Shown here: positions 1,886-56,129 of the stretch, piece by piece
Layout: every line of letters begins with the position of its first letter
Position numbering within the stretch: position 1 is the stretch's first letter
Origin: an uncultured Candidatus Saccharibacteria bacterium
Lineage (GTDB): Bacteria; Patescibacteriota; JABMPQ01; JAQVVF01
Assembly: GCA_964574655.1 (NCBI GenBank)
Contig: CAZNOH010000001.1
Coordinates: forward strand, 400,247 to 464,246
DNA length: 64,000 nucleotides
Reading direction: 5' to 3'
Notes under the pieces: model-generated
What the model was told of the DNA's origin: nothing
The model's database searches: none
The model's input: the letters and a program-made list of their open reading frames with translations, nothing else
Program-made: the position numbers and the translations under genes

Positions 1886-3769
1886 ATGAAGGATCAAAAC
1901 ACACAAACAAAAAAAGAGATAAATGTCGATGTTCTGTCGACCATAGATGAGTATTTAGGAAAAATGGATTGGCGAGTTTCAGCAAACGCAAATCAAGGCT
2001 ATTCTTTAGGCGGTATGATTTTAAATACTGCAGGAAAGGTAGTGGCTAATTATTGGTTGCATAAAATTTATCCAAAAGAAGTTGGTGAAGCTCATATCCA
2101 TGGTGATTATCATATCCATGATTTGGATATGTTCACTGGTTATTGCGCTGGATGGAGCATTAGGCAACTTTTGGAAGAAGGCTTTAATGGAGTTTCTGGC
2201 AAGGTTGAATCTGGGCCAGCAAAGCATCTAGAAACTGCTTTGGGACAAATGGTAAATTTTTTAGGAACATTGCAAAATGAGTGGGCTGGCGCGCAAGCTT
2301 TTTCATCTTTTGACACTTATTTGGCCCCCTTTGTTAAGATTGATAATTTGGATTATGAAAGAGTAAAGCAGTGTGTCCAGCAATTTGTTTTTAATCTTAA
2401 TGTTCCATCTCGTTGGGGAACACAAACTCCTTTTACGAATGTTACTTTAGATTGGGTTTGCCCAGAAGATATGAGAACAAGGAAGCCGGTAATTGGCGGC
2501 AAGGTCGTTGATTTTACTTATGGAGATTGCCAAAAAGAAATGGATATTGTTAATAAAGCTTTTATTGAGACAATGATTACAGGCGATAATAAGAGCAGAA
2601 TTTTTACTTTTCCAATTCCAACATACAATATTACAAAAGATTTTGATTGGGAAAATGAAAATGTGAAATTATTATTTGAAATGACAGCTAAATATGGTAC
2701 TCCTTATTTTCAGAATTTTTTAAATTCAAGCTTGAAGCCTTCTGATGTTAGAAGTATGTGCTGTAGATTACAATTAGACTTGCGTGAATTAAAAGCAAAA
2801 GGCGGAGGCTTGTTTGGCTCTGCAGAAATGACAGGCAGTGTTGGAGTAGTAACTATTAATTTGCCAAGAATTGGCTATTTAGCTAAAACAAAAGAGGAAT
2901 TTTTACAAAGATTAGAAAAATTAATGAGCTTGGCTAAAACTTCTCTAGAAATGAAAAGAAGAGTAATAGAGGAAAACATGGATAAGGGCTTGTTGCCTTA
3001 TACAAAACGCTATCTTGGATCATTGCATAATCATTTTTCGACAATTGGCGTTAATGGATCTAATGAAGCTTGTTTGAATTTTTTGGATAAAGATATTTCT
3101 CATCCAGAATCCAAGCAATTCATTCTTGATGTTTTGGATTTTATGAGAAAGAAATTAGCTGATTATCAAGAAGAGACAAATAATTTCTATAATTTGGAAG
3201 CAACTCCAGCAGAAGGTACAACATATAGATTTGCAAAAGAAGATCAAAAGAGATATCCAGATATTATTCAGGCAGGAACAAAAGAAGCCCCTTATTATAC
3301 AAATTCAACTCATTTGCCTGTCAGCTATACTGATAATCCAATGGAGGCATTAGACCATCAAGATGATTTACAAACTAGATACACCGGCGGAACAGTTTTG
3401 CATATGTTTTTAGGCGAAAGAATTATGAATTGGAAAGTTTGCCGAGATTTAGTTAAGAGAATCGCTGAGAATTATAGACTGCCTTATTTTACAATGACTC
3501 CCACGTTTAGTATTTGTCCAACGCATGGTTATTTGAATGGCGAGCAAAAGAATTGCCCAATTTGTGAGAAAGAATGTGAAGTATGGTCAAGAGTGATGGG
3601 ATATTTTAGGCCTGTCTCACAATGGAATAAGGGCAAACAAAGTGAATATGCTGAACGCAAAGAATATGAAATTAAGAATTTAAAATATGAAAATAGCCGG
3701 GTTTCAGAAATTAAGCCTATTAGAATACCCAGACAAGATTTGTGCAATAGTGTTTCTGCAGGGATGTAA
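1886..3769 (+). CDS. nrdD: Anaerobic ribonucleoside-triphosphate reductase (class III), NrdD
   Basis: 627 aa. C-terminal Zn-ribbon CPTHGY..CPIC and glycyl-radical motif RVMGYFRPV..WNKGKQSEY. The read-through tail overlaps nrdG. Confidence 0.9.
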   Translation: MKDQNTQTKKEINVDVLSTIDEYLGKMDWRVSANANQGYSLGGMILNTAGKVVANYWLHKIYPKEVGEAHIHGDYHIHDLDMFTGYCAGWSIRQLLEEGFNGVSGKVESGPAKHLETALGQMVNFLGTLQNEWAGAQAFSSFDTYLAPFVKIDNLDYERVKQCVQQFVFNLNVPSRWGTQTPFTNVTLDWVCPEDMRTRKPVIGGKVVDFTYGDCQKEMDIVNKAFIETMITGDNKSRIFTFPIPTYNITKDFDWENENVKLLFEMTAKYGTPYFQNFLNSSLKPSDVRSMCCRLQLDLRELKAKGGGLFGSAEMTGSVGVVTINLPRIGYLAKTKEEFLQRLEKLMSLAKTSLEMKRRVIEENMDKGLLPYTKRYLGSLHNHFSTIGVNGSNEACLNFLDKDISHPESKQFILDVLDFMRKKLADYQEETNNFYNLEATPAEGTTYRFAKEDQKRYPDIIQAGTKEAPYYTNSTHLPVSYTDNPMEALDHQDDLQTRYTGGTVLHMFLGERIMNWKVCRDLVKRIAENYRLPYFTMTPTFSICPTHGYLNGEQKNCPICEKECEVWSRVMGYFRPVSQWNKGKQSEYAERKEYEIKNLKYENSRVSEIKPIRIPRQDLCNSVSAGM

Positions 3770-4412
3770 TTTTAGATGTCCATTTTGCCATAATCCAGAA
3801 TTGGTCGGTGATCCTCCTTCGTCCTGCGGGACTTCGGAGGACGAGGTCTTCGGTTATTTGGTCAAGAAGAAGAAAATGCTAGATGGTGTTTGTATTACTG
3901 GCGGAGAGCCGACTATTTGGAAAGACTTGCCGGAATTTATTGTTGAGTTAAAAAAGCTTGGTTATTTTGTTAAGCTTGATACAAATGGATCTAATCCTGC
4001 GATGCTTGAAAAGCTTTATAAAAATAAATTGCTTGATTATGTTGCAATGGATTTGAAGGCTCCGTGGACGAGATATTCGGAAATTGGAATATTCGGAGCT
4101 TCGGAGCTTCGGAGCTTCGGAGCTTCGGAGCTTATGAAATTGGTTGAGAATTGTCGGAAGTCTTTTGAATTGATTCAAAATTCAGGAGTAGATCATGAAT
4201 TCAGGACAACTGTTTTTCCACAAAAGCATGTTGAAAATGATTTTATGGAAATGGCAAGTTATTTGAAATCTGGTGAAAAATATTATTTGCAGAATATTAG
4301 ATATATCAAGAATTTAGATCCTGCTTTAGATCAGAGCAAAAAGATTAATGTTAGCTTGGTTGTAAAAAATTTAAAGCAAAAATATCCTGATTTAATTGTT
4401 GAAGAAAGATGA
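3687..4412 (+). CDS. nrdG: Anaerobic RNR activating enzyme (radical SAM), NrdG, with in-frame repeat insertions
   Basis: N-terminal SLLEYPDKICAIVFLQGCNFRCPFCHNP (CxxxCxxC radical SAM). GGEP motif. Confidence 0.8.
   Translation: MKIAGFQKLSLLEYPDKICAIVFLQGCNFRCPFCHNPELVGDPPSSCGTSEDEVFGYLVKKKKMLDGVCITGGEPTIWKDLPEFIVELKKLGYFVKLDTNGSNPAMLEKLYKNKLLDYVAMDLKAPWTRYSEIGIFGASELRSFGASELMKLVENCRKSFELIQNSGVDHEFRTTVFPQKHVENDFMEMASYLKSGEKYYLQNIRYIKNLDPALDQSKKINVSLVVKNLKQKYPDLIVEER
3812..3848. repeat. GC-rich CTTCGG hairpin mini-element, copy A, in-frame inside nrdG
   Basis: atcctccttcgtcctgcgggacttcggaggacgagg. Stem TCCTCC/GGAGGA. It shares the loop and the motif with the copies at 6897 and 11058. Confidence 0.6.
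4092..4131. repeat. 8-bp tandem repeat (TTCGGAGC)x5 inside the nrdG coding sequence
   Basis: ttcggagc x5, translated in-frame as FGASELRSFGASEL. Confidence 0.85.
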
Positions 4413-4438
4413 TATTTAACAGTGAATACTATTTTTTG

Positions 4439-4468
4439 AATACAGAGTTTCAAATTCTGTATTTTTTT
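4439..4468 (+). terminator. Rho-independent terminator after nrdG
   Basis: atacagag-tttcaaat-tctgtat followed by T7. Confidence 0.5.
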
Positions 4469-4618
4469 GTTATTATAGATATAATTGTTCTATTGTTAAA
4501 TTGCTGAATTGTTGTTTCATTCGAATGTTTTTTTGAATAGAACTCTAATCAATTTTCAAATTAAAATCAGTATTCGAGATAAGTATTAGAACAATTCGAA
4601 AGGTATTAGTGTGAGGCA

Positions 4619-4643
4619 ATAAAAAAACGCTAGGAATAGCGTT
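4619..4643 (-). terminator. Rho-independent terminator for the minus-strand gene 4646..5149
   Basis: aaaaaaACGCTAggaaTAGCGTt. On the minus strand this reads as a hairpin plus T-run. Confidence 0.5.
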
Positions 4644-4645
4644 AG

Positions 4646-5149
4646 TTACAAAGAGCCGTCAATGATTTCTGTACAGCCAAAGTGCTTGCAGGTTTCTTTT
4701 GCTCGTTGGCATGGAGTTTCAGTGAGAAAGAGCTTGATTACTGGATCGCTTTGAATATCTCGCAGTTTGAGATTGGCGCGATTGGCAATTCCTGGATGAC
4801 TGGATAAGTGAAGAATTCCGAGATCTTTTTCAGCCTGTGGAATTTCACGTTGAACCTTGCGATTGGTGGAGCAAACGATTCCTCGTTTTCCTTGATACCA
4901 ATCACGAGATTCATCGGTCGTGCCCCAGACTCCATCGTATCTGATCATGTATTCGAGATCTTGGTTTGCCATTTGAAGATCAATCCTTGTATTTTCAATC
5001 CTTTCATTGATCTTGCCGAGTTGCATATCTTGCAAGCAAGTTTCATCACCATTACAGATAACGCGATCAAGTTCAGAACTGTCAGCATAGGCGATCAAGC
5101 TTCCGAATGCAATCAAAGGAATTACAATTAGCATGTCTGTTTGGCGCAT
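4646..5149 (-). CDS. Hypothetical secreted Cys-rich protein with atypically high GC and a strong SD
   Basis: Start chosen at MRQTD, preceded by GGAGGAAAAAGG. Signal peptide MLIVIPLIAFGSLIAYA. No recognisable domain. GC is visibly above the genome background. Confidence 0.4.
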   Translation of the reverse strand: MRQTDMLIVIPLIAFGSLIAYADSSELDRVICNGDETCLQDMQLGKINERIENTRIDLQMANQDLEYMIRYDGVWGTTDESRDWYQGKRGIVCSTNRKVQREIPQAEKDLGILHLSSHPGIANRANLKLRDIQSDPVIKLFLTETPCQRAKETCKHFGCTEIIDGSL

Positions 5150-5272
5150 CCTTTTTCCTCCGTTTTTGCCCCGCAACCTTTTTGGGGGCCTCTCTTTGAG
5201 AGACATAGAACGAGTATATGATAGAATTAAATAATTGTCAATCGTTTTTGTTAATTAAAAATCATACATACT

Positions 5273-6547
5273 ATGAAAAAGAAGTTACTATTGATATTAG
5301 GTTTTTTGTTGTTATTGCCTAATTTTGGCTATTCTAAGGCACAAGATTGGGGTGTTGTTTATAATTTGACAGAGTCTGATTTAGCTGTTTCTCAGCAGAT
5401 TTTTAATAGATCAAAGAGAATTGAAATTAAAATACCAGCAAATTTAATAGATGCTGAACAAATAAACATTAAATTTAAAAAGCTTGCAAAAGATGAGCAT
5501 AAAATTCCAGAAGGATATGAAGCAATCAGCAATATTTATCGCTATGAAATTTCTAATGAGACTGATGATTTTGTTTTATTAGGAAAAGTAAAAATTTTAT
5601 TAAAATATAATTCAAAGACATTTAATAAAAAAGGCGCATTTTATTGGGATTTTGATGAAAATAGATGGAATGAATTAAGAAGTAAAATTAATGATAGCAA
5701 GGATTTGGCGATTATAAAAACTGATATTGAAGATTTAGATATTGTTGTTTTAGAAAAAAGCAGCAAATCAAGCATTATTGAACCAACTAAGAAAGCTGAT
5801 GTTTCTGATCCAGATGTTTATTCTCTGGGAGGAGTATTGATGGATATAAAATCTGGCAAGATAATGTACTGCAAAGATTGTGATCGAAAGTTGACTTTAG
5901 CTTCAATGACAAAAATGATGACAGCTAATATTGTTCTGGAGTCTGGTTTAGATTTAAATAAAATTTATACTTATCAGCCACGGGATGATGCTGAGGGCCA
6001 GAGTGTTTGGCTGACAGCAGGTGATAGAATAAAAGTTGAAGACTTGCTTTATACGTCTTTAGTAAAATCAGCCAATAATGCAACTAACGCTTTGGCTCAT
6101 GCAACAGGAATGAGCGATGCTGAATTCGCTGCTAAAATGAATGAAAAAGCAAAAAAGGTGGGAGCAAATTCATGTTCTTTTTATGAGCCTTCTGGTTTGG
6201 ATTGGCGAAATGCTTGTACTCCTAAAGATTATGCTAAAGTTGCGATTGATGCTTTGAAAAAATTTAAAATCATGCAAGCATCAACAACTAAGGTCTATTC
6301 TTATCAAACTTTGGGAGGCAAAACTATTAGCGTGACTAATACTAATGCTTTGCTGAATAGTAATTTGTATATTTTGGGTGGAAAAACGGGCTATTTGCCA
6401 GAAATTGGCATGAATTTGATGACTAAAGCGCGAGATAAAAACGGGCATGAATTAATCGGAGTTGCTATTGGTTCTGGATCTTATTATGGTGTAACAAATG
6501 ATGTTGAAAAGATGTTGAGATGGGGGTTTAATAATTGGACATGGTGA
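5273..6547 (+). CDS. Serine-type D-Ala-D-Ala carboxypeptidase (S11, PBP5/DacA-like) with an N-terminal extra domain
   Basis: Signal peptide. SxxK (SMTK), SxN (SAN) and KTG (GGKTGY) motifs. Confidence 0.7.
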   Translation: MKKKLLLILGFLLLLPNFGYSKAQDWGVVYNLTESDLAVSQQIFNRSKRIEIKIPANLIDAEQINIKFKKLAKDEHKIPEGYEAISNIYRYEISNETDDFVLLGKVKILLKYNSKTFNKKGAFYWDFDENRWNELRSKINDSKDLAIIKTDIEDLDIVVLEKSSKSSIIEPTKKADVSDPDVYSLGGVLMDIKSGKIMYCKDCDRKLTLASMTKMMTANIVLESGLDLNKIYTYQPRDDAEGQSVWLTAGDRIKVEDLLYTSLVKSANNATNALAHATGMSDAEFAAKMNEKAKKVGANSCSFYEPSGLDWRNACTPKDYAKVAIDALKKFKIMQASTTKVYSYQTLGGKTISVTNTNALLNSNLYILGGKTGYLPEIGMNLMTKARDKNGHELIGVAIGSGSYYGVTNDVEKMLRWGFNNWTW

Positions 6548-6566
6548 TTAGATATTCGGAAATTGG

Positions 6567-6595
6567 TTGTGAAATTAGGGTTTTTTTGGTATAAT
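6567..6595 (+). promoter_or_regulatory. Sigma70-like promoter TTGTGA-N17-TATAAT for the BON-domain gene
   Basis: ttgtga aattagggtttttttgg tataat. Confidence 0.5.
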
Positions 6596-6663
6596 CAAAT
6601 TAAGCTTAAAGTTAAAAGTCTAAAATTAAAAGTAAAATCTTAAATTAAAAATAATTAAAATTT

Positions 6664-6897
6664 ATGTCAGAATTTTCAAACAGATCAGATAAGGATATCT
6701 TTCAAGATATCGAAAAATCTTTATTAGAAAATGAAGACGTTATGACTGATAATGTAAACGTGCAAGTTACAGGCGGAAAAGTGATTTTATCAGGTCCTGT
6801 TGAGTCTTTGGAGGAAAAACAAGGAATTGAAGATACTATTTCTGATATTCCGGGAGTGGCTATCATTGATAATGATTTGCAAATAGAGAAAATTTAA
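6664..6897 (+). CDS. BON (OsmY-like) domain protein
   Basis: VQVTGGKVILSGPVESLEEKQ...IPGVAIIDNDLQI pattern. Confidence 0.5.
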   Translation: MSEFSNRSDKDIFQDIEKSLLENEDVMTDNVNVQVTGGKVILSGPVESLEEKQGIEDTISDIPGVAIIDNDLQIEKI

Positions 6898-6927
6898 TCC
6901 TCCTTCGTCTGTAGGACTTCGGAGGAT
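6897..6927. repeat. GC-rich CTTCGG hairpin mini-element, copy B
   Basis: ATCCTCC-ttcgtctgtaggacttc-GGAGGAT. It overlaps the BON stop codon. Confidence 0.6.
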
Positions 6928-7009
6928 AATTGATTGGACGAAGATTTAGCACGTACTTGTAAAGATGTATTATAGATTGTAAAAAGATATACATTATTTA
7001 AAAACAAAA

Positions 7010-7384
7010 ATGCAAATTTTTTTAGATTATATTGAATGGTGGTATTCTTATGGTTTAATCAGAATGCTTAAGTATTTAAAAGCATTTATTTTAGTTTTGG
7101 TTGATACTTTCTCTGTAAAAATTTGTTTTTCGACATTATTTGCGCCATGGAAAAGAGATGCTGTTTCAACAGAAGGAATGAGTTTGCAAGAGAGATTTGG
7201 AGTGTGGGGTGGAAATCTGATTGCAAGATTATTTGGTTTTTTTATTAAATTTATAACTTTATTAATATTTTTAATCTGTTTTATAATTTTGCTTTGTTTT
7301 GAAATTGCTATTATAGTTATTTGGTTATTACTTCCAATGTTGCTGGTGGAAGGAATTGTAGTAGGTGTTATGTATTTAAGATAA
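7010..7384 (+). CDS. Hypothetical small membrane protein
   Basis: ORF with hydrophobic helices. No motif. Confidence 0.3.
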   Translation: MQIFLDYIEWWYSYGLIRMLKYLKAFILVLVDTFSVKICFSTLFAPWKRDAVSTEGMSLQERFGVWGGNLIARLFGFFIKFITLLIFLICFIILLCFEIAIIVIWLLLPMLLVEGIVVGVMYLR

Positions 7385-7499
7385 TCGCTAATATTTTGCT
7401 AATGTTTGCGAATTATTTGCAAATAAAGTAAAAAGCCTGGTTGAATAGTAAATTTTATTAGCAAATAATTAGCAAATATTTGCAAATGATTAGCGAAAT
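7385..7499. promoter_or_regulatory. Two phased arrays (4+4) of the TTTGCTAAT/TTAGCAAAT/ATTTGCAAAT motif upstream of the Clp ATPase gene
   Basis: GC(T/A/G)AAT cores at 7388, 7398, 7408, 7419 and 7461, 7472, 7482, 7493 (10-11 bp period). ATTTGCAAAT itself is palindromic. Confidence 0.55.
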
Positions 7500-7514
7500 A
7501 ACAAATGTTTTTTT

Positions 7515-10079
7515 ATGATTACATTTAATACAGGAAAATCAAAAATATTTCGTTATGCAGGATTAGTCAGATTCTTGCGAGTTTTTATTTTTAAGATTTT
7601 GTCTTTTTTTGTTTATTTATTAGGTATTTGTTCTTTTGCCTTTGTAATTTTATATAATTTTTCAAGTTTATATAATTTGAATTTTAACAGCAGAATGTTG
7701 GGTTTTGCGGTTATCTGCTTGGCTTTTTCTTTGTTCTATTTGTCATTCCATGTTTTTTATGAATCAGGAGTCAGAAATGTAAAGCCATTAATTCCTTTGA
7801 AAGATGCTTTGGCGATTGCAAAAAAAGACGGAAATATTAATTTAGCTGATTTTGTCTCTATCAATTTAGCAATTGCAATATCAAATGCTTTGAAGAAGAG
7901 CAAAAATAAAAAGGATGCGATGATTAATTCTTCTGATCTGCTTTTGGAATTATTGAAAGTGAAATCAATAAAATTTATTGTTAATCGTATTGGTCTAAGT
8001 GTTTTGGATTTAGAAAAATATGTTGAAGAATATGCGTCAGCAAAATCAAAACAATATCTGGATTCACCGCAAACATTGAAAAAAGCTTTAGAGGTTGGCT
8101 ATCTGGAAGGACATGAAATAATAAGTTGCGGTGATATTTTTGTTGTTTTGTCAGCTCTTGATCCTTTGATGAAAAAGATTTTGTTTGATTTAAATTTAAA
8201 GATTGAAGATATTGCGAATATTGTTTATTGGGAAACTTCTTTTTATAAATTTAGAAAAGAGAAGAATTTTGATCCGGATAAAATCAAGAGAAAGGGCGGG
8301 ATTGGTAGAGAGTGGGCATATGGTTATACTAGAGCGTTAAGAACATTTGGTCATGATTTGACTGATGAAATATTAAGAGGCGCGCTTCCTTTTCATATTA
8401 TTGGACATGAAAAAAATATCAATCAGATAGAAGATGTCCTTGTTCGCGCGACACATCATAATGTGATTTTACAAGGCGCTCCTGGCGTTGGTAAAAGAAC
8501 AGTTGTTTTGGGTCTTGCAAAAAGAATTCTGGAAGGTACTGCTTATTCTAGCTTAGCTAATAAGAGATTAATTGAATTAGATGTTGATAGATTGTTAGCT
8601 GGAGCACAAACTCCAGGTGAGATTATTGAAAGATTGGAAGCAGTAATGTCTGATGCTGTTGTTGCAGGCAATATTGTGTTGTTTATTGATAATATTCAGA
8701 AATTATTTGGTAGCGGTGAGGGCAAGGTTGGATCAATTGATGCTTCTCAAGTGTTAGTGCCATTTTTAGAGAATCCAAATTTATATTTTGTATCAACTGC
8801 TAATTCTGACGATTTTCATCAATATATTGAAACAAGATCAGCAGTATCTGATAAGTTTGAAGTTTTGGAGATTACTGAGCCTAATGAAAATGTGACCTTA
8901 AGAATTTTAGAAGATATGGCTCCAAAGCTAGAATCTCAAGGAGGAGTAATAATGAGCTATCCGGCTTTGAAATCCATCTACAAATTAGCTGATCAATTTT
9001 TGTATTCAAAGCCTTTTCCTGAAAAGGCAATTGATTTTTTGAATGAAACAATTGTTTTTGCTTCTGCTTTTGGCAGAGGAACAATTGTTTTGCCAAAACA
9101 CATTGAAACTTTGATGAAGAAAAAAGTTAAGGCGCCGATAGGCGAGGCTGAAGGCGCAGAAAAACAATTGTTATTGCATTTGGAAGACTTTTTGCATAAG
9201 CGTGTTGTTGATCAAGAAGAAGCAATAAGGGTAGTTTCTGATGCTTTGAGGCGTGCAAGATCAGGCGTTGAAGCAGGAAATAAACCAGTGGGTAGTTTCT
9301 TATTTTTAGGACCAACTGGAGTTGGAAAGACTGAAACCACAAAAGCACTTGCAGAAGCTTATTTTGGTTCGGAGAAATCAATGATACGTTTTGATATGTC
9401 AGAATATCAGGATCAAGCCTCTGTTTATCGTTTGATTGGTCCTCCTCCTGGAACGACTGAGGCGAAAGCTGGCGGTGAATTAACAAATGCAATTAAAGAT
9501 AATCCTTTTACTGTTGTTTTGTTTGACGAAGTCGAAAAAGCGCACAAAGATATTTTGAATTTATTTTTACAAATGTTGGACGAGGGCTGGTTGACTGATT
9601 CTTTAGGAAGAAAAGTAAAGTTTAATAATGCCATGATTATTGCAACATCAAATGCTGGAGCTAACTTGATTCAAGATGGTATAAGACAACATCTCGATCC
9701 AGTAGTTTTAAAAGAGAGATTAATAAATTATTTACAGGCCGAGGGCATATTTAGGCCGGAATTTTTGAATAGATTCACTTCTGTCGTTTATTTCAAGCCT
9801 TTGGAAAAAGAGCATGTTTTACAAATTACGAAAATGTTATTAGGTAAACTAGTCAAAAGATTAGAACAAGAAAAGGGAATTTATTTGAGAATTGATGAGC
9901 CAGGAATTGAAAGATTGGCTGAGCTTGGTTTTGATCCTTTGATGGGTGCAAGGCCTATCATGAGGACAATTCAAAACTATGTTGAAAATATTTTGGCAAA
10001 GAAGATGTTAACTGGTGAAGTTAAAAGAGGAAGTCAGTTTGTGATTACTTTAGTTGATATCAATAATACAAAACAATAA
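7515..10079 (+). CDS. Membrane-anchored Clp/Hsp100-family double-AAA+ ATPase (ClpA/ClpC-like, no ClpB M-domain)
   Basis: N-terminal TM helices. D1 Walker A GAPGVGKRT with a degenerate Walker B LFIDN. D2 Walker A GPTGVGKTE and Walker B FDEVEKAH. Confidence 0.75.
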   Translation: MITFNTGKSKIFRYAGLVRFLRVFIFKILSFFVYLLGICSFAFVILYNFSSLYNLNFNSRMLGFAVICLAFSLFYLSFHVFYESGVRNVKPLIPLKDALAIAKKDGNINLADFVSINLAIAISNALKKSKNKKDAMINSSDLLLELLKVKSIKFIVNRIGLSVLDLEKYVEEYASAKSKQYLDSPQTLKKALEVGYLEGHEIISCGDIFVVLSALDPLMKKILFDLNLKIEDIANIVYWETSFYKFRKEKNFDPDKIKRKGGIGREWAYGYTRALRTFGHDLTDEILRGALPFHIIGHEKNINQIEDVLVRATHHNVILQGAPGVGKRTVVLGLAKRILEGTAYSSLANKRLIELDVDRLLAGAQTPGEIIERLEAVMSDAVVAGNIVLFIDNIQKLFGSGEGKVGSIDASQVLVPFLENPNLYFVSTANSDDFHQYIETRSAVSDKFEVLEITEPNENVTLRILEDMAPKLESQGGVIMSYPALKSIYKLADQFLYSKPFPEKAIDFLNETIVFASAFGRGTIVLPKHIETLMKKKVKAPIGEAEGAEKQLLLHLEDFLHKRVVDQEEAIRVVSDALRRARSGVEAGNKPVGSFLFLGPTGVGKTETTKALAEAYFGSEKSMIRFDMSEYQDQASVYRLIGPPPGTTEAKAGGELTNAIKDNPFTVVLFDEVEKAHKDILNLFLQMLDEGWLTDSLGRKVKFNNAMIIATSNAGANLIQDGIRQHLDPVVLKERLINYLQAEGIFRPEFLNRFTSVVYFKPLEKEHVLQITKMLLGKLVKRLEQEKGIYLRIDEPGIERLAELGFDPLMGARPIMRTIQNYVENILAKKMLTGEVKRGSQFVITLVDINNTKQ

Positions 10080-10660: not shown

Positions 10661-11025
10661 ATGGATAAACAAACTAAAAAAGAATTTACAACGCTCAAAA
10701 AAGGATTTACTACACTCAATAAAGAATTTACAGATCTGAAGAAAGTAATAAAAAATGGATTTAAGACGCAAGATGTTAAGTTTAATAATTTGCATGATAG
10801 AATTGATGATCTAGCTATGATGGTAAAAAAAAGTTTGATCAGAATAGTAAAGAGCATGAACAAAATAGAATAGAACATGAGCAAAATAGAAGAGAGCATG
10901 AAGAGATTTTAAACGAATTGGCAGAAGTTGATTTGAAATTAGGGGAAAAAGCAATGTGTGGTGATTATATTGATTTAGAGAGTCGTGTTGATGTTATCGA
11001 AAGAAAATTATTTCCGATTAGATAG
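10661..11025 (+). pseudogene. Small coiled-coil protein interrupted by a frameshift at an A8 homopolymer (10825-10832)
   Basis: Frame 1 MDKQ..MMVKK terminates at 10873. The +2 frame continues as KFDQNSKEHEQNRIEHEQNRREHEEILNELAEVDLKLGEKAMCGDYIDLESRVDVIERKLFPIR to about 11025. An A9 tract would fuse the two frames. Confidence 0.4.
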
Positions 11026-11057: not shown

Positions 11058-11085
11058 ATCCGCCTTCGCTGTTGCTTCGGCGGAT
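11058..11085. repeat. GC-rich CTTCGG hairpin mini-element, copy C (diverged)
   Basis: ATCCGCC-ttcgctgttgcttc-GGCGGAT. Confidence 0.5.
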
Positions 11086-11095
11086 ACTTTGCATA

Positions 11096-11830
11096 CTATT
11101 TTTTTGGAATTATTTGTTGTTTAGAGTTTAGTTTTAATTTCCAGACAATCCAAAAAGCTTCGTAAAATATTTTCTTTGAAAATTTAGAAATACCATTTTT
11201 GCGATCAGCAAAGACAATCGGTATTTCTTTTATTTTAAAGCCTGCTAACTTTGTTTTGAAAGCCATTTCAATTTGAAAAGAATAACCATCAGATTGAATT
11301 TGATCAAGATTGATTTTTTCTAAAACTTGACGTTTATAGCAACGGAATCCAGAAGTTAAATCATTAATTTCAAGCCTTAAGATTGTTTTGGCATATAATG
11401 TTCCAAAGCGACTGATTAATTTTCGATATAGCTCCCAATTTTTTGTTGATCCACCATCAATATACCGTGAGCCGATAACTAGATCTGAATCTTGCATTGC
11501 CTTCAAAAAAGAGGGGATACTGTGCGGATTGTGCGAGAAATCAGCATCCATTTCAAAGATATAATCAGCGCCTAAAAAGAGCGCTTTTTTAAATCCAGCA
11601 ATATAAGCAGAGCCTAGTCCCATTTTAGCTTCTCTGTCGATGACATAGAGTTGTTTTGGGAGGTTTTCACTCAATCTTTGGGCCATAATGCCTGTTCCAT
11701 CAGGCGAATTGTCGTCAACAATGATAATATTGCCATCAATATTGTTATCTCTAAAGACAGTTAAGATTTCTCGAACGATTTTTTTGAAGTTATCTACTTC
11801 GTTGAATGTAGGTAAAACGATACTGATCAT
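11096..11830 (-). CDS. GT2 glycosyltransferase, Dpm1/polyprenol-phosphate glycosyltransferase-like
   Basis: MISIVLPTFNEVDN...IIVDDNSPDGT and GT2 fold motifs. Confidence 0.75.
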   Translation of the reverse strand: MISIVLPTFNEVDNFKKIVREILTVFRDNNIDGNIIIVDDNSPDGTGIMAQRLSENLPKQLYVIDREAKMGLGSAYIAGFKKALFLGADYIFEMDADFSHNPHSIPSFLKAMQDSDLVIGSRYIDGGSTKNWELYRKLISRFGTLYAKTILRLEINDLTSGFRCYKRQVLEKINLDQIQSDGYSFQIEMAFKTKLAGFKIKEIPIVFADRKNGISKFSKKIFYEAFWIVWKLKLNSKQQIIPKK

Positions 11831-11869: not shown

Positions 11870-13414
11870 ATGTTATATAATAATTTTAGCATAATTTTAT
11901 GCTTTTTCAAAGGATATTTTATGAATAAAAAGCCTGATTTTAGGCAATTATTGGCTAAAATTAAGAAAATTGATTGGTGGACAGAAGAGGCGCCTGGTGT
12001 TTATCAAAAGTTTTTGTATCCTGTTGCTTCGGCAATTGGTCAACGACGTTTTTTTCATCCTAAATATTTAGATTTTGTAATTTTTGTATTTGAAAACGAT
12101 TTTGTACATGAAGAAAGTCCAATTAATCAAAAGCAAGAGATTTATAAGTATATTTATAAAAAAGTAGAAAAAGACAAAAGTTATTTAAAAAAAAGGAGAA
12201 AAGAATCTTTGGAATCTGCGAGACGTTATATTTGCAAAGGCAATTTTTTCGAAAAAAATCAGAAGAAGCTGACAAATAAGCAAGTTTGGCAATTGTACAA
12301 AAAGTTTGTTCAGGGTGATTATTATGATTATGTTTGTTATGGATATATGCTTGAATGTGCTGATGTGGTAAATTTTCAAGGATTGGTAAAGAAAGAGAAA
12401 AAACAGTTGGATGATGAAAACATTGAAAAAATTTGTTTTGTGCTTGGAGTGCCAGCTATTTTGAGCTTTATGGAGAAAGCTAGAATTATTTTTTTGGAAG
12501 CTATATTATCGTCAGACCATGAGCAAAGAGAAAACAAAATTAAAGAGTTGGCAAAAAAATACTATTGGCTGGAAAATAATTATAAAAGAGCAAAAATTTT
12601 GGAAACTGGCGATTTTAATGAAAAAATTAAAGGCGAACTGAAAAAAGTTAAGAGAAATGATTTAAAGAAGGAACTATCAAGCTTAAAATCAAAAGTTGGC
12701 AAACTATTAAAAGAAAAACAAGCAATTAAAGAGAAATATAAATTTTCTCAAGATTTATTGTTAAATTTTGAAATTTTAGAATATATTGGTTCATGGAGCG
12801 ATGAGAGAAAGGCGAATATGATGCAAGCGAATCATTATCTTGAAGCTTTTTGTCAAGAAATAGCTAAAAGATTTGGAATTAAAGTTGAAGACATTAATTA
12901 TTATTTGGTTGAAGAAATCAAAGATTTATTATTGAAAGGCGTTAAAGTTAAAAAGGATATTTTAAAAAAACGCAGAGATTTTTCAGCGATTGTAATGACG
13001 CCTGGCAGAACAAAAAGAGATGTTAAAATGGAATTTTATTATGAAAAAAATGCTAAAAAGATTTATAATGCAATTTTTGAAAGGCAAGAATCTTTAGAAA
13101 TCAGAGGACAAGTTGCTTCAGCACCAGTTGAAAGGATTTATGGTCAAGTGCAGTTAGTTTTGGATCCTGATAATGTTGAATTTAAAAAAGGCAGAATACT
13201 GCTGACAACAATGACAAGGCCGGATTTTATTCCTATTGCAAGATTAGCGAGTGCAATAATTACTGATGAGGGCGGAATAACATGTCATGCTGCTATTTTG
13301 GCTCGGGAAATGGGCGTTCCTTGTATTATTGGTACAAAAAAGGTAACTAAAGTTTTGAAAGATGGAGATAACATAGAAATGGATCTAAAAACAGGAATAA
13401 TTAAATTAATTTAA
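11870..13414 (+). CDS. Protein with a C-terminal PEP-utilizer phosphohistidine (swivel) domain and a novel N-terminal domain. First of two paralogs.
   Basis: C-terminus ITDEGGITCHAAILAREMGVPCIIGT (PEP-utilizers domain, catalytic His). The N-terminal ~380 aa have no known motif. The true start may be the downstream MNKKPDF. Confidence 0.6.
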   Translation: MLYNNFSIILCFFKGYFMNKKPDFRQLLAKIKKIDWWTEEAPGVYQKFLYPVASAIGQRRFFHPKYLDFVIFVFENDFVHEESPINQKQEIYKYIYKKVEKDKSYLKKRRKESLESARRYICKGNFFEKNQKKLTNKQVWQLYKKFVQGDYYDYVCYGYMLECADVVNFQGLVKKEKKQLDDENIEKICFVLGVPAILSFMEKARIIFLEAILSSDHEQRENKIKELAKKYYWLENNYKRAKILETGDFNEKIKGELKKVKRNDLKKELSSLKSKVGKLLKEKQAIKEKYKFSQDLLLNFEILEYIGSWSDERKANMMQANHYLEAFCQEIAKRFGIKVEDINYYLVEEIKDLLLKGVKVKKDILKKRRDFSAIVMTPGRTKRDVKMEFYYEKNAKKIYNAIFERQESLEIRGQVASAPVERIYGQVQLVLDPDNVEFKKGRILLTTMTRPDFIPIARLASAIITDEGGITCHAAILAREMGVPCIIGTKKVTKVLKDGDNIEMDLKTGIIKLI

Positions 13415-21710: not shown

Positions 21711-23702
21711 TTAGAGTAGACTTTCCGGATCAATATCAATGATCCAGTCATTAGGAATTTGTCTTAAAATATTTTCTTTAAATTTTGAATCTTTTAACTT
21801 GATAATTATTTGCCAAATATATCGGCCTTGTATTTTTGTGAAAAATGATGGAGCGGGACCGAGCAAAGTTGTACGTTGTAAGTTGTTCGTCTTCGTTGAA
21901 ACTTCGGCGGATAAATAAGTTGTAAGCTTCGTGAATAATTTCTGTGCTTCGTATTGAGCTTTGTCTGGGTCAGAATTCTTGTAGATTAACTTAATTATTT
22001 TGACAAATGGGGGATAATCAAGCTCTTGGCGAGTTTTAATTTCATTTTTGTAAAAACTTACAAAATCATGCTTAGCTGCTGTTTTGATAACAAAGCTTTC
22101 TGGATTATAGGTTTGAAAAATTACTTTGCCTGGATTTTTGCCACGGCCAGTTCTTCCAGCAATTTGTGTTAGGAGTTGGAATGTTCTTTCTTGTGCCTTG
22201 TAGTCTGGAAGATTAAGGCCAACATCTGACGAAATGACACCAACTAAATCAACTCCTTCTAAATCCCAGCCCTTAGCAATCATTTGAGTGCCAATCAGTA
22301 TATTGGCTTTTTTTAGCCTAAAATCGTTATATATTTGCGCATGGGAGTGTTTGGTACGAGTCGTATCCGAATCCATCCTGAATATTCTAACATATTTGTA
22401 CATTTTTTGCAACTCCTGTTCTACTTTTTCTGTACCAGTGCCAAAATATTTTATAGCCGAGCTTTTACATTTGGGACATGAAATTGGGGTTGGCGTAGTG
22501 TAGCCACAATAGTGGCAACTCAAATTCTGTTTATATAGATGAAAAGTGAGTGGGACGTCACAATTTTTGCAGGTGGCAATATATCCGCAATCTCGGCAAT
22601 TAACAAAAGTGGCTACTCCTCGTCGATTAATATAGAGTAATGCTTGGCGATTGTTTTTAATGATAATTTCAAGCTCTTTTTGTAGGTTCTCTGAAAAAAT
22701 AGAAAAGTTCTTTTTTTTGAATTCTTCTCTCATGTCTACAATTTCTACTTTTGGCATTACAGAATTGGCAGTAAATCTTGTTGGTAAATTCAGTAGTGTA
22801 TAAATATTTTGTTCAGATAGATAATATGATTCGATGCTGGGAGTTGCTGATCCAAGGACTATTTTTGCGTTGTAGAGGCTAGCTAATTTTATTGCTGCCT
22901 GTCTTGCGTGATAGCGAGGATTTTGATCATATTGCTTGTAGGAAGAATCATGCTCTTCATCAATAATAATTATTCCGAGTTTTTGTATTGGTGCAAAGAT
23001 TGCTGATCTTGGACCGATAATTATTTTTGCTTTATTTGATTTGATTTTTTTCCATTGAGTAAACTTTTCGCCAGAAGATAATTTAGAATGTAGAATTGCA
23101 ATTTGGTCTTTACTAAAATGTTGAGAGAAGCGATTAATTGTTTGAGGCGTTAAAGATATTTCAGGAACCAAAACTATTGATTGCTTATCTAGTTTTATTT
23201 GTTGTTCGATTAGTTTTAAATAAATTTCTGTTTTGCCAGAGCCTGTTACTCCATGAATTAGGAAAACTCTAAAGTCTTTTGTTGAATTTATTTTTTCGTA
23301 TATTTTTTGTTGTTGTTCTGTTAGATCTGGATAGGGAATAGTTGTTGATGTCACACTTTTATCTTTCGTTCTTTGGTTGACTAATTGAGGCAGCATTAAT
23401 TTTATCACAGAGGCAACAGAAGTATGATAATATTCTGAGATCCATTTTGCTAATTCTATTTGTTTTTCTGTCAGACTAAGATTTTCTACTTGTCTAATAA
23501 TACCTTTTGGTTTGAAATCAAGCTCATGAATACTTTTATTGTTCAGCGAGTAAACTATGCCTTTTATATTTTTTCCACGAAAAGGAATTTCAACAACTTG
23601 GCCTAAAGATATATTTTCTTTTGATAAATAAGAAAAAACCTGATTTTTGTCAGGAGGTAATTTAATGGATGGAATAATATTAAATAACCAATTAGCTGGC
23701 AT
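21711..23702 (-). CDS. priA: Primosomal protein N' (replication restart helicase)
   Basis: Walker A GVTGSGKTE. DEEH box. CxxC...CxxC zinc-binding insertion. Confidence 0.85.
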   Translation of the reverse strand: MPANWLFNIIPSIKLPPDKNQVFSYLSKENISLGQVVEIPFRGKNIKGIVYSLNNKSIHELDFKPKGIIRQVENLSLTEKQIELAKWISEYYHTSVASVIKLMLPQLVNQRTKDKSVTSTTIPYPDLTEQQQKIYEKINSTKDFRVFLIHGVTGSGKTEIYLKLIEQQIKLDKQSIVLVPEISLTPQTINRFSQHFSKDQIAILHSKLSSGEKFTQWKKIKSNKAKIIIGPRSAIFAPIQKLGIIIIDEEHDSSYKQYDQNPRYHARQAAIKLASLYNAKIVLGSATPSIESYYLSEQNIYTLLNLPTRFTANSVMPKVEIVDMREEFKKKNFSIFSENLQKELEIIIKNNRQALLYINRRGVATFVNCRDCGYIATCKNCDVPLTFHLYKQNLSCHYCGYTTPTPISCPKCKSSAIKYFGTGTEKVEQELQKMYKYVRIFRMDSDTTRTKHSHAQIYNDFRLKKANILIGTQMIAKGWDLEGVDLVGVISSDVGLNLPDYKAQERTFQLLTQIAGRTGRGKNPGKVIFQTYNPESFVIKTAAKHDFVSFYKNEIKTRQELDYPPFVKIIKLIYKNSDPDKAQYEAQKLFTKLTTYLSAEVSTKTNNLQRTTLLGPAPSFFTKIQGRYIWQIIIKLKDSKFKENILRQIPNDWIIDIDPESLL

Positions 23703-28942: not shown

Positions 28943-28985
28943 AGCGCTGATTTTACGCTGATTTCGAACGCTGATATACGCTGAT
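28943..28985 (+). repeat. ACGCTGAT x4 array, copy 1
   Basis: agcgctgatttt acgctgatttcga acgctgatat acgctgat. Located 3 nt after the M23 stop. Confidence 0.9.
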
Positions 28986-34258: not shown

Positions 34259-34302
34259 AGCGCTGATTTGACGCTGATTACTAACGCTGATCTAACGCTG
34301 AT
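34259..34302 (+). repeat. ACGCTGAT x4 array, copy 3
   Basis: agcgctgatttg acgctgattacta acgctgatcta acgctgat. It starts 3 nt after the rpmA stop. Confidence 0.9.
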
Positions 34303-35979: not shown

Positions 35980-36023
35980 AGCGCTGATCTAACGCTGATT
36001 TTTAACGCTGATCTGACGCTGAT
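35980..36023 (+). repeat. ACGCTGAT x4 array, copy 4
   Basis: agcgctgatcta acgctgattttta acgctgatctg acgctgat. 10 nt upstream of the pyrG start codon. Confidence 0.9.
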
Positions 36024-52115: not shown

Positions 52116-52156
52116 ATCGCTAATCATTTGCTAATTTTTGCAAATTATTTGCTAAT
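52116..52156. promoter_or_regulatory. Phased array of four TTTGCTAAT/TTTGCAAAT motifs filling the NHL-GT1 intergenic region
   Basis: atcgctaat, tttgctaat, tttgcaaat, tttgctaat at about 10-bp period. Same family and same ATCGCTAAT leading unit as the array at 7385. Confidence 0.55.
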
Positions 52157-56084: not shown

Positions 56085-56129
56085 AAGCGCTGATTTTACG
56101 CTGATTTCTAACGCTGATATAACGCTGAG
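56085..56129 (+). repeat. ACGCTGAT x4 array, copy 5
   Basis: aagcgctgatttt acgctgatttcta acgctgatata acgctgag. It ends 18 nt before the GT2 start codon. Confidence 0.9.

Follow-up and report, generated by a model that had tools for sequence, protein, structure and literature searches.

Hairpin copies and host genes in the window

The window is a stretch of 64 000 nt from contig CAZNOH010000001.1 of an uncultured Candidatus Saccharibacteria bacterium (assembly GCA_964574655.1). It is AT-rich (28–36 % GC), and the closest named relatives of its NrdG protein are metagenome-assembled genomes (MAGs) of Patescibacteria. Within it lie three intact copies and one decayed copy of a short GC-rich hairpin element, all on the + strand, in or beside the genes nrdG, a BON-domain gene, a glycosyltransferase (GT2) gene and priA (Table 1). 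An earlier examination of this DNA, referred to here as the sequence-only reading, had reported three related hairpins and a related motif in priA; the hairpins are present essentially at those sites, and the priA motif proved to be the 3′ half of the decayed fourth copy. The stop codon of the BON-domain gene (TAA, 6895–6897) ends on the base that is the first A of the adjoining hairpin, and the intergenic copy sits between convergent genes, namely an open reading frame (ORF) on the + strand ending near 11025 and the GT2 gene on the − strand.

The copies have a common architecture that consists of a 6–7 bp foot (TCCNCC/GGN′GGA), a 3×3 internal loop (TTC/TTC, read as GAA/GAA on the opposite strand) and a variable apical mini-hairpin. 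Across the family the length of the element ranges from about 27 to 37 nt. A loop beginning with TTCG and ending with CTTCGG had been proposed earlier; these ends are present, but the structure is a 3×3 internal loop with a variable apical stem-loop and not a plain loop. The predicted fold was recovered with ViennaRNA for the three intact copies on both strands, the GAA strand being somewhat more stable. Folding z-scores of the intact copies were between −2.7 and −4.7 (−3.7/−4.3 for the two strands of the BON copy and −2.7/−4.7 for those of the intergenic copy), except for the + strand of the nrdG copy (−1.7), where an alternative fold with flanking coding sequence is available. The priA copy has a decayed 5′ arm and has lost the fold. 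The hexamer CTTCGG was observed 21 times in the window, compared with an expectation of 8.8±2.6; the sites at 12027, 21462, 40785, 43957, 50933 and 52667 were examined and are not copies of the element.

Table 1. Hairpin copies and associated genes in the 64 kb window
Feature	Position (nt)	Strand	Sequence, or basis of assignment
nrdD	1886-3769		Gene of the window
nrdG, host gene (anaerobic ribonucleotide reductase activase, radical SAM)	3687-4412	+	ORF, homologues, alignment, structure model
BON-domain gene; stop codon overlaps first hairpin base	6664-6897	+	ORF; syntenic genes in L001-L006 with Pfam BON
GT2 glycosyltransferase gene	11096-11830	-	
priA, host gene (primosomal protein N′)	21711-23702	-	ORF, homologues, alignment
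nrdG copy, encoding D42-D52 (DPPSSCGTSED)	3811-3841, with a further C at 3842	+	ATCCTCC TTC GTCC TGCG GGAC TTC GGAGGA C
BON copy, abutting the BON stop codon	6897-6927	+	ATCCTCC TTC GTC TGTAG GAC TTC GGAGGAT
Intergenic copy (GT2 side)	11058-11085	+	ATCCGCC TTC GC TGTT GC TTC GGCGGAT
Decayed priA copy, in a minus-strand gene	21885-21914	+	GTTCGTC TTC GTT GA AAC TTC GGCGGAT AA

The hairpin family in other bacterial genomes

A covariance model (R1) was built from 63 sequences of other phyla only and searched over the 64 kb window. The intergenic copy was the best match (39.9 bits, E=3.5e-12), followed by the BON copy (35.5 bits, E=1.5e-10), the nrdG copy (35.3 bits, E=1.7e-10) and the priA copy (18.4 bits, E=3e-4), with all remaining sites of the window at E>1. 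The window hairpins are one related family, far beyond what chance would give.

The family is not specific to this genome but is spread over many bacterial lineages, which the sequence-only reading had missed. The pattern ATCCNCCTTCG-N(2–16)-CTTCGGNGGA was scanned in one genome per species (GTDB) and was found at at least 120 loci, giving 124 usable matches; the number expected by chance in the whole 596 Gb collection was estimated, assuming equal base frequencies, as about 65. Taxon labels of MAGs were taken as given in the database records. Among the matches listed, these labels name about 15–20 bacterial lineages, including the isolates Bradyrhizobium and Niastella as well as MAGs labelled as Bacteroidales, Flavobacteriales, Verrucomicrobiota/Opitutales, Kiritimatiellia, Planctomycetes, Acidobacteriota, Omnitrophota, Armatimonadetes, Bdellovibrionota, Marinimicrobia, Thermoleophilia, Saccharibacteria and several other groups of the candidate phyla radiation (CPR). 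The GC content of the DNA flanking the matched elements ranged from 32 % to 74 %. In viral contigs (IMG/VR), the pattern was found at 36 loci compared with four for a control of the same composition with a mirrored 3′ half, and one of these four overlaps a real element. The plasmid collection gave weak partial matches only.

The most frequent form among the matches listed is 27 nt long, ATCCGCC TTC GC(C/T) AA (G/A)GC TTC GGCGGA C. In 91 of 124 copies the number of nucleotides is divisible by three, a count dominated by the 27 and 33 nt subfamilies. The scan pattern fixed 19 positions, so that these positions are invariant in the match set by design. Diversity in the true family is certainly greater than among the pattern matches; for example, a copy in the nrdG gene of the related lineage L001, with an internal loop of TAC/TTT, would escape the scan.

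Pairing was assessed at positions that the pattern left free. The fifth stem pair is Watson–Crick in 95 of 124 matches (G-C 63, T-A 17, C-G 8, A-T 7), and 99 of 125 matches have complementary bases at the first two central pairs, compared with 6 % by chance. The central hexamer covaries, with forms such as CCAAGG, CTAAAG, CTGAAG, CCGAGG and TTAAAA. The covariation score of the 63-sequence alignment was 0.20, compared with 0.07±0.01 for shuffled alignments, none of 500 of which reached 0.20, and slid registers scored 0.06 or less. Where the fifth pair is mismatched, GGCGGA is nearly always retained and it is the 5′ arm that varies (T/C 11, A/C 8, C/C 3, G/A 0); the 3′ arm is the better conserved of the two among the pattern matches. 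On the GAA strand, 87 of 124 members start with GTC-C, mostly after T or C, and this motif overlaps the stem.

Most copies are singletons. Several copies within 8 kb were found in some genomes (three in L052 and four each in L067 and L010), as were tandem arrays (L093 and L029) and inverted doublets (L053, L040 and L046).

Some copies have distinctive surroundings. At eight loci from Bacteroidales and Flavobacteriales (L011, L034, L054, L060, L083, L084, L105 and L108) the hairpin forms the 5′ module of a longer, composite repeat some 120 nt in length, with the layout TTTTA-hairpin-CGAGAAG...GGTTTAATTCCCCGG-hairpin-...GTCCAGAGCTTGCTCTGGGGTTCATACCATTT and no Rfam match. Copies lie directly beside tRNA genes in L018 (5013–5123, in the order tRNA, hairpin copy, T-run), L026 (793–1069), L057 and L093 (1–150), the last having at least three whole elements in tandem with a 31 nt period. 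TCCTCC...GGAGGA is the other common variant of the foot, and in two Kerfeldbacteria-type loci (L071, 2601–2636; L102, 5891–5926) copies are nested, with TCCTCC...GGAGGA as the apical stem of a TCCGCC/GGCGGA element. L057 contains a perfect large palindrome (3316–7943) in which a 447 aa ORF, a tRNA and the hairpin are identical on both arms; this contig is probably an assembly artefact and its two hairpin matches therefore count once.

Gain and decay of copies among related lineages

Syntenic loci from several related Patescibacteria lineages (L001–L006 and L127–L129) were compared. The BON copy is missing from all syntenic relatives L001–L006, and the intergenic copy and the decayed priA copy are likewise present in the window and absent from both the L001 lineage and the other relatives. 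The copy in the nrdG linker is present in the window and in L001 and absent from the other relatives, while a site upstream of nrdD carries a copy in L001 (7977–8013) and none in the window or the other relatives. No copy was found in about 80 kb from three related lineages. Copies have been gained and are decaying among these relatives.

A different structure, the AT-rich inverted repeat AAAATCCTC-N27-GAGGACAA, is conserved upstream of nrdD in several relatives, always on the minus strand (L001, 7908–7951; L002, 8019–8061; L004, 8019–8061; L005, 1258–1300). Its matches to the hairpin model are weak (E about 0.07), and it probably represents a regulatory hairpin or an operator of the nrd operon, separate from the hairpin family.

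The clean insertion is that in priA. Compared with its three closest homologues, with which it shares 87 % protein identity, the window gene has 10 extra codons, and the DNA alignment shows a single clean block of 30 nt with no other indel nearby. On the coding strand this block reads TTATCCGCCGAAGTTTCAACGAAGACGAAC, translated in frame (reading frame R2) as (Y)LSAEVSTKT. The centre of the copy, TTCGTTGAAACTTCGG, is identical to that of copies in L064 and L103.

The nrdG copy had been described as an in-frame insertion by the sequence-only reading; it is not a simple one, in that the copy adds no net length relative to those relatives that lack it. The linker from the CX3CX2C motif to the GGEP strand (GDPPSSCGTSEDE in the window) is equal in length to that of L002, L004 and L006 (FDNKNKTQITE-E/D-E), and at the DNA level a 31 nt element stands in place of 31 nt of AT-rich linker. 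Its 3′ arm, TCGGAGGAC, occupies the place of conserved ACCGAGGA(A/T) codons and overlaps the conserved (S/T)-E-(D/E) codons. Since the element is matched in L001, the copy is common to two lineages. The L001 element has the same apical part (GTCC TGCG GGAC) and differs in its foot (TCCGCC/GGCGGA, TCCTCC/GGAGGA in the window), in its internal loop (TAC/TTT) and in having 18 further nucleotides. The difference in the foot is a double, pair-preserving change (T-A versus G-C), of which one half is synonymous (CCT/CCG) and the other non-synonymous (GAG/GCG), and the copy has also been reshaped by in-frame indels between the window and L001. Judged from these two sequences, this single case could reflect selection on pairing, conversion from a different copy, or a deletion through which native GAGGA codons became a new arm.

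The AlphaFold model of the window NrdG has a mean predicted local distance difference test (pLDDT) score of 89.4 with only two weak regions. Residues 41–50 form a coil with a mean pLDDT of 67 and match the segment encoded by the hairpin, which is predicted to be a disordered surface linker; residues 137–143 score below 50 and lie within a tandem-repeat segment. No solved NrdG homologue was found at E<1e-5.

The deposited NrdG of the source genome (P0001, 203 aa) begins at a TTG just before the hairpin and therefore is without the CX3CX2C radical-SAM motif, while the called genes of the relatives begin at an internal GTG. Read from its ATG at 3687, the complete ORF shares 83 nt with nrdD, and its start agrees with the N-termini of homologues that are more distant. 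The repeats may thus disturb gene calling in the window.

The tandem-repeat segment of nrdG (4092–4133) is a perfect in-frame array of 42 nt, (TTCGGAGC)x5.25, read as ...GASELRSFGASEL..., and lies in a hypervariable loop that is disordered in the AlphaFold model. The array appears, from its sequence, to have grown by slippage or duplication from ancestral TATTCGGAA codons. It has GCTTCGGAG in common with the 3′ half of the hairpin element and is not recognized by covariance model R1; a link between the array and the hairpin family is possible. At the corresponding position of nrdG in L001 (10355–10390) there are five G-tracts (GGGTTTAGGGCATAGGGCACAGGGCTTGGG), which may constitute a G-quadruplex motif in an apparently AT-rich genome. 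The variable loop of NrdG gathers unusual GC-rich DNA in different lineages.

Copies inside genes and their reading frames

Intragenic copies were counted in low-GC loci, where long ORFs are trustworthy. Roughly one third of the matches in these loci are inside long ORFs and about two thirds are intergenic, with many of the latter lying 4–15 nt beyond the end of an ORF as read from the locus table. Copies in frame were found in PheT (SAEALAKAD, in two species at the same position), Tgt (SAEALAKAD), GlyRS (SSEASAKED), LeuRS (SAFAKASAD), KdsB (SSFAKASGD), an ABC ATPase (SAFARASAD) and a glycosyltransferase (SAEVLTKAD). By comparison with solved Tgt structures, the Tgt copy lies within an 18-residue insertion between conserved blocks.

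Reading frames F3 and R1 are free of stop codons in all 124 copies, while stops occur in seven copies in F2, five in R2, 41 in F1 and 24 in R3. Eleven of 13 tabulated ORF-embedded matches in other genomes use F2 or R2, the frames that yield peptides rich in Ser, Ala, Lys, Asp and Glu (SAFAKASAD or SAEALAKAD) and not Arg-rich ones. This bias in frame use points to filtering by selection. In the window, a centre of 10 nt moves the nrdG copy out of frame F3 and into F2.

Intragenic copies were found on both strands. Where neighbouring genes are co-directional, eight copies have the same orientation as the genes and nine the opposite one (locus table reading), and orientation relative to transcription is random.

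Comparison with known palindromic repeats

Repetitive extragenic palindromes (REPs) have been sorted into superfamilies tagged by GTAG or CGTC; they are concentrated immediately downstream of ORFs and can provide stop codons, and a minority in both superfamilies lie in frame inside genes, notably genes for DNA replication and repair and for tRNA synthetases (Di Nocera, De Gregorio and Rocco 2013, BMC Genomics 14:522, PMC3733652). CGTC REPs are without a dedicated transposase, and the elements RPE-4 and RPE-6 of Rickettsia have been equated with them (PMC3733652). CGTC families have an uninterrupted stem of 8–9 bp starting with A-T pairs, a loop of 4–5 nt and a CCA tail, and the peptides that they encode include VIPAKAGI, SFPRKRES and DTVVKPRYD (PMC3733652).

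The hairpin family resembles CGTC REPs in being made up of GC-rich stem-loops of 20–40 nt, present in multiple copies in several phyla, with a minority of copies in frame in genes and no transposase seen within 2.5 kb of them. As with REPs, copies are placed mainly after ORFs or between convergent ORFs, sometimes touching or supplying a stop codon; in the window one copy lies at the BON stop codon and one between convergent genes. In size and palindromic form the hairpin is like a generic REP, which would be repeated many times per genome; four copies were counted in the 64 kb of the window and up to four in 8 kb elsewhere. The start of the family on the GAA strand, (C/T)GTC-CGCC in 70 % of members, resembles the CGTC/TGTC tag, but this 'tag' overlaps the stem, and among the window copies CGTC is found in that of nrdG only, with TATC in the rest. 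Unlike CGTC REPs, the family has a foot of 6–7 bp, a 3×3 internal loop and a second, apical stem of 2–4 bp, and no CCA tail. It encodes SAFAKASAD or SAEALAKAD, and no REP-encoded peptide listed in PMC3733652, including those of RPE-4 and RPE-6, matches these.

A second point of comparison is provided by REPINs with their REP-associated tyrosine transposases (RAYTs) and by the subterminal hairpins of IS200/IS605 elements. Here too a conserved foot with mismatched bases is combined with a variable tip, as read on single-stranded DNA by HUH Y1 transposases, no target-site duplication was seen at the priA site, and inverted doublets occur occasionally (L053, L040 and L046). In contrast to REPIN/RAYT systems, no GTAG flanks the window copies or the family consensus, most copies are singletons, and no RAYT or TnpA gene was seen beside the copies within 2.5 kb. 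REPIN populations have host-specific sequences, whereas the hairpin family is nearly identical across phyla.

Rickettsia palindromic elements (RPEs), reportedly described by Ogata and colleagues in 2000, are a further relative in behaviour. Classical RPE-1 is 100–150 bp long and restricted to Rickettsia. The hairpins are like RPEs in being inserted in frame in protein-coding genes (30 nt in priA, in frame in nrdG, and PheT, Tgt, GlyRS, LeuRS and KdsB elsewhere) and in adding surface segments without destroying the protein, translation of the hairpin inserts being predicted here. They differ from RPE-1 in being 27–37 nt long, unrelated in sequence and found in many phyla.

The family behaves as a REP or RPE yet departs from the structural definition of CGTC REPs, encodes different peptides and has neither a GTAG tag nor a linked RAYT, and is therefore placed as a further REP/RPE-like family. 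It consists of palindromic repeats with intragenic copies, and what is unusual about it is the breadth of its distribution and its conserved internal loop.

Origin and maintenance of the hairpins

Taken together, the four sites are probably copies of a non-autonomous, selfish repeat of the REP/RPE kind, 27–37 nt long, mobilized in trans and filtered by selection. The family is multi-copy, with a conserved foot and internal loop, a variable tip, covariation, gain and decay among relatives and in-frame tolerance in coding sequence. Pairing that extends down to an apical loop of 2 nt, conservation of TTC/TTC and one better-conserved arm fit a DNA hairpin read by a protein better than they fit an RNA role. 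We infer that the family is mobile, and the mechanism could be as follows. Copying to new sites would take place at the DNA level. The form copied would most plausibly be a single-stranded hairpin, its foot and internal loop being recognized by an enzyme supplied in trans, which might be RAYT-like, an HUH transposase of the IS200/IS605 kind or some other host function. Insertion would be roughly indiscriminate, with selection deciding which copies survive, namely those just past stop codons, between convergent genes, or in genes with the frame kept and a harmless peptide added. Once fixed, copies would decay under AT-biased mutation, as in priA.

Several observations weigh against a selfish, trans-mobilized repeat. 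At about 150 loci, the DNA within 2.5 kb of a hairpin contains no recurring protein family, an all-against-all BLASTP of 2814 ORFs within this distance showing recurrence limited to generic ABC ATPases. No RAYT or TnpA was seen next to any copy in these flanks; ORFs of the window were not scanned for Y1 transposases, and about 10 % of the genome was covered (64 kb of approximately 654 kb). Nothing resembling a transposase lies between paired copies, either in the palindromic L057 contig or in L031, where there are housekeeping genes only. The priA site, which is the sole clean comparison of a filled and an empty site, shows no convincing target-site duplication or defined target, and the nrdG copy, judged from the alignment, is not a simple insertion. 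A recent burst is not indicated, since the apical parts of the window copies differ. REPs normally diverge along with their host; here the unpaired positions are nearly identical in different phyla, which is unusual for REPs and could reflect a conserved cellular function. Finally, the nrdG copy shared with L001 carries a compensatory change, a hint that pairing is under selection; a relic that is purely selfish would have no need of this. The sequence-only reading had proposed a mobile-like element that tolerates coding positions; the tolerance of coding and non-coding sites and the presence and absence among relatives bear this out, while movement is deduced indirectly, with no mobilizing enzyme and no target-site duplication found. 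A MITE, which is a miniature transposable element with inverted repeats, was considered as a class and rejected, as the priA comparison has no duplication and the whole element is a single hairpin.

Alternatively, the hairpins could be functional RNA elements, such as 3′-end stabilizers, processing sites, weak terminators or pause sites, that have been recruited repeatedly, with the stem and GAA/GAA loop bound by a widely conserved RNA-binding factor and the intragenic copies being functional or tolerated by-products. This is rather unlikely, although it would account for the placement of two of the four window copies at gene 3′ ends (at the BON stop codon and between convergent genes), of many copies elsewhere shortly beyond an ORF end and of some directly after tRNA genes, with a T-run following in L018. 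It would also fit the stable folds, more so on the GAA strand, the sequence conservation of unpaired positions and the compensatory change between the orthologous nrdG copies. The GC-rich hairpin near gene 3′ ends is a likeness to intrinsic terminators and 3′ stabilizing hairpins, but the window copies have no T-run and a terminator scan calls neither 6897 nor 11058, and an intrinsic terminator was rejected on these grounds. Orientation is also random with respect to transcription, copies inside genes lie on either strand, and the loop sequence is conserved across phyla. No Rfam family reached its gathering threshold in the window, only tRNAs did so in 18 other loci, and relaxed scans of two copies gave P26 as the best match (15 bits, the gathering score being 36). 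The core thus does not correspond to any recognizable part of a known structured RNA. Covariation of pairing down to a 2 nt apical loop, which is unfavourable in RNA, and presence or absence at non-orthologous sites among close relatives also speak against an RNA role.

It is less probable still that the hairpins serve the host at the DNA level, as binding sites for a nucleoid, gyrase, recombination or replication-associated protein in the manner of bacterial interspersed mosaic elements (BIMEs) and REPs, with spread being secondary. The joint occurrence of an inverted and a direct (CTTCG) repeat, the conserved non-complementary positions and the better-conserved 3′ arm with its retained GGCGGA are what such a site might show, and all four window copies are on the G-rich (+) strand, GC skew being positive almost throughout the window. 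Across the family, however, the bias relative to the GC skew of the flanks is at most weak (63 against 51, P=0.3), the density is low and irregular (four copies per 64 kb here and none in the 80 kb of the three related lineages), the priA copy is visibly decaying, and no candidate binding protein is known.

Independent local formation of GC-rich quasi-palindromes, by slippage or template switching around CTTCGG or GAGGA codons, is very improbable and is effectively refuted for the four window copies: although the 3′ arm of the nrdG copy re-uses ancestral CGAGGA codons with no added length and nrdG also contains the perfect (TTCGGAGC)x5 slippage array derived from TATTCGGAA codons, a model of unrelated phyla recognizes the intact copies at E of 1e-10 to 1e-12, every copy has the same non-complementary TTC/TTC positions, the priA centre TTCGTTGAAACTTCGG recurs unchanged in L064 and L103, and at least 120 loci elsewhere have the same architecture. 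Such an origin is possible only for the tandem array. The sequence-only reading had argued that coincidence would show as an nrdG segment shared by all relatives as protein with different DNA and as a lack of further copies; the segment was found in one compared relative only, where it is shared as DNA with a compensatory change in the stem, and further copies are many.

Searches of the literature, whose coverage was incomplete, that targeted the core DNA sequence, the peptides it encodes or REPs of CPR/Patescibacteria returned no description of the element, the nearest match in concept being PMC3733652, and the family appears to be undescribed. A more far-reaching proposal, which is offered tentatively and is itself doubtful, is that these are pan-bacterial, ultra-short mobile hairpins, characterized by the GAA/GAA loop and a YGTC-proximal arm, kept near-identical across about 15 or more phyla and phage-like contigs by trans-acting machinery with no linked transposase, and repeatedly colonizing essential genes (aminoacyl-tRNA synthetases, Tgt, PriA and NrdG) in frame, where they would add a stereotyped nine-residue Ser/Ala/Lys/Asp peptide.

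Small palindromic repeats such as REPs and RPEs are among the least understood parts of bacterial genomes. The present family is easy to recognize, occurs in cultivable bacteria (Bradyrhizobium and Niastella) as well as in the reduced genomes of Patescibacteria, and is short enough for its recognition features (the foot, the internal loop and the better-conserved arm) to be read straight from an alignment. This makes two questions testable, namely which factor moves the elements and how tiny genomes tolerate selfish DNA in essential genes. In practice, the repeats would create lineage-specific inserts of 9–11 residues in conserved proteins.

Other repeated sequences in the window

Two further sets of repeats were noted in the window. 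Five near-identical arrays on the + strand (28945–28985, 34261–34302, 35982–36023, 56088–56118 and 63011–63052), unrelated to the hairpin family, each contain three or four (A/G)CGCTGAT boxes at spacings of about 11, 13 and 10–11 nt; their sequence suggests a module for regulation or protein binding that is repeated along the window. The other set comprises partly palindromic TTTGCTAAT / TTAGCAAAT / TTTGCAAAT boxes with a period of 10–11 nt at 7387–7501 and 52119–52156, which may be operator sites; the first of these lies directly upstream of a ClpB-like gene starting at 7515.

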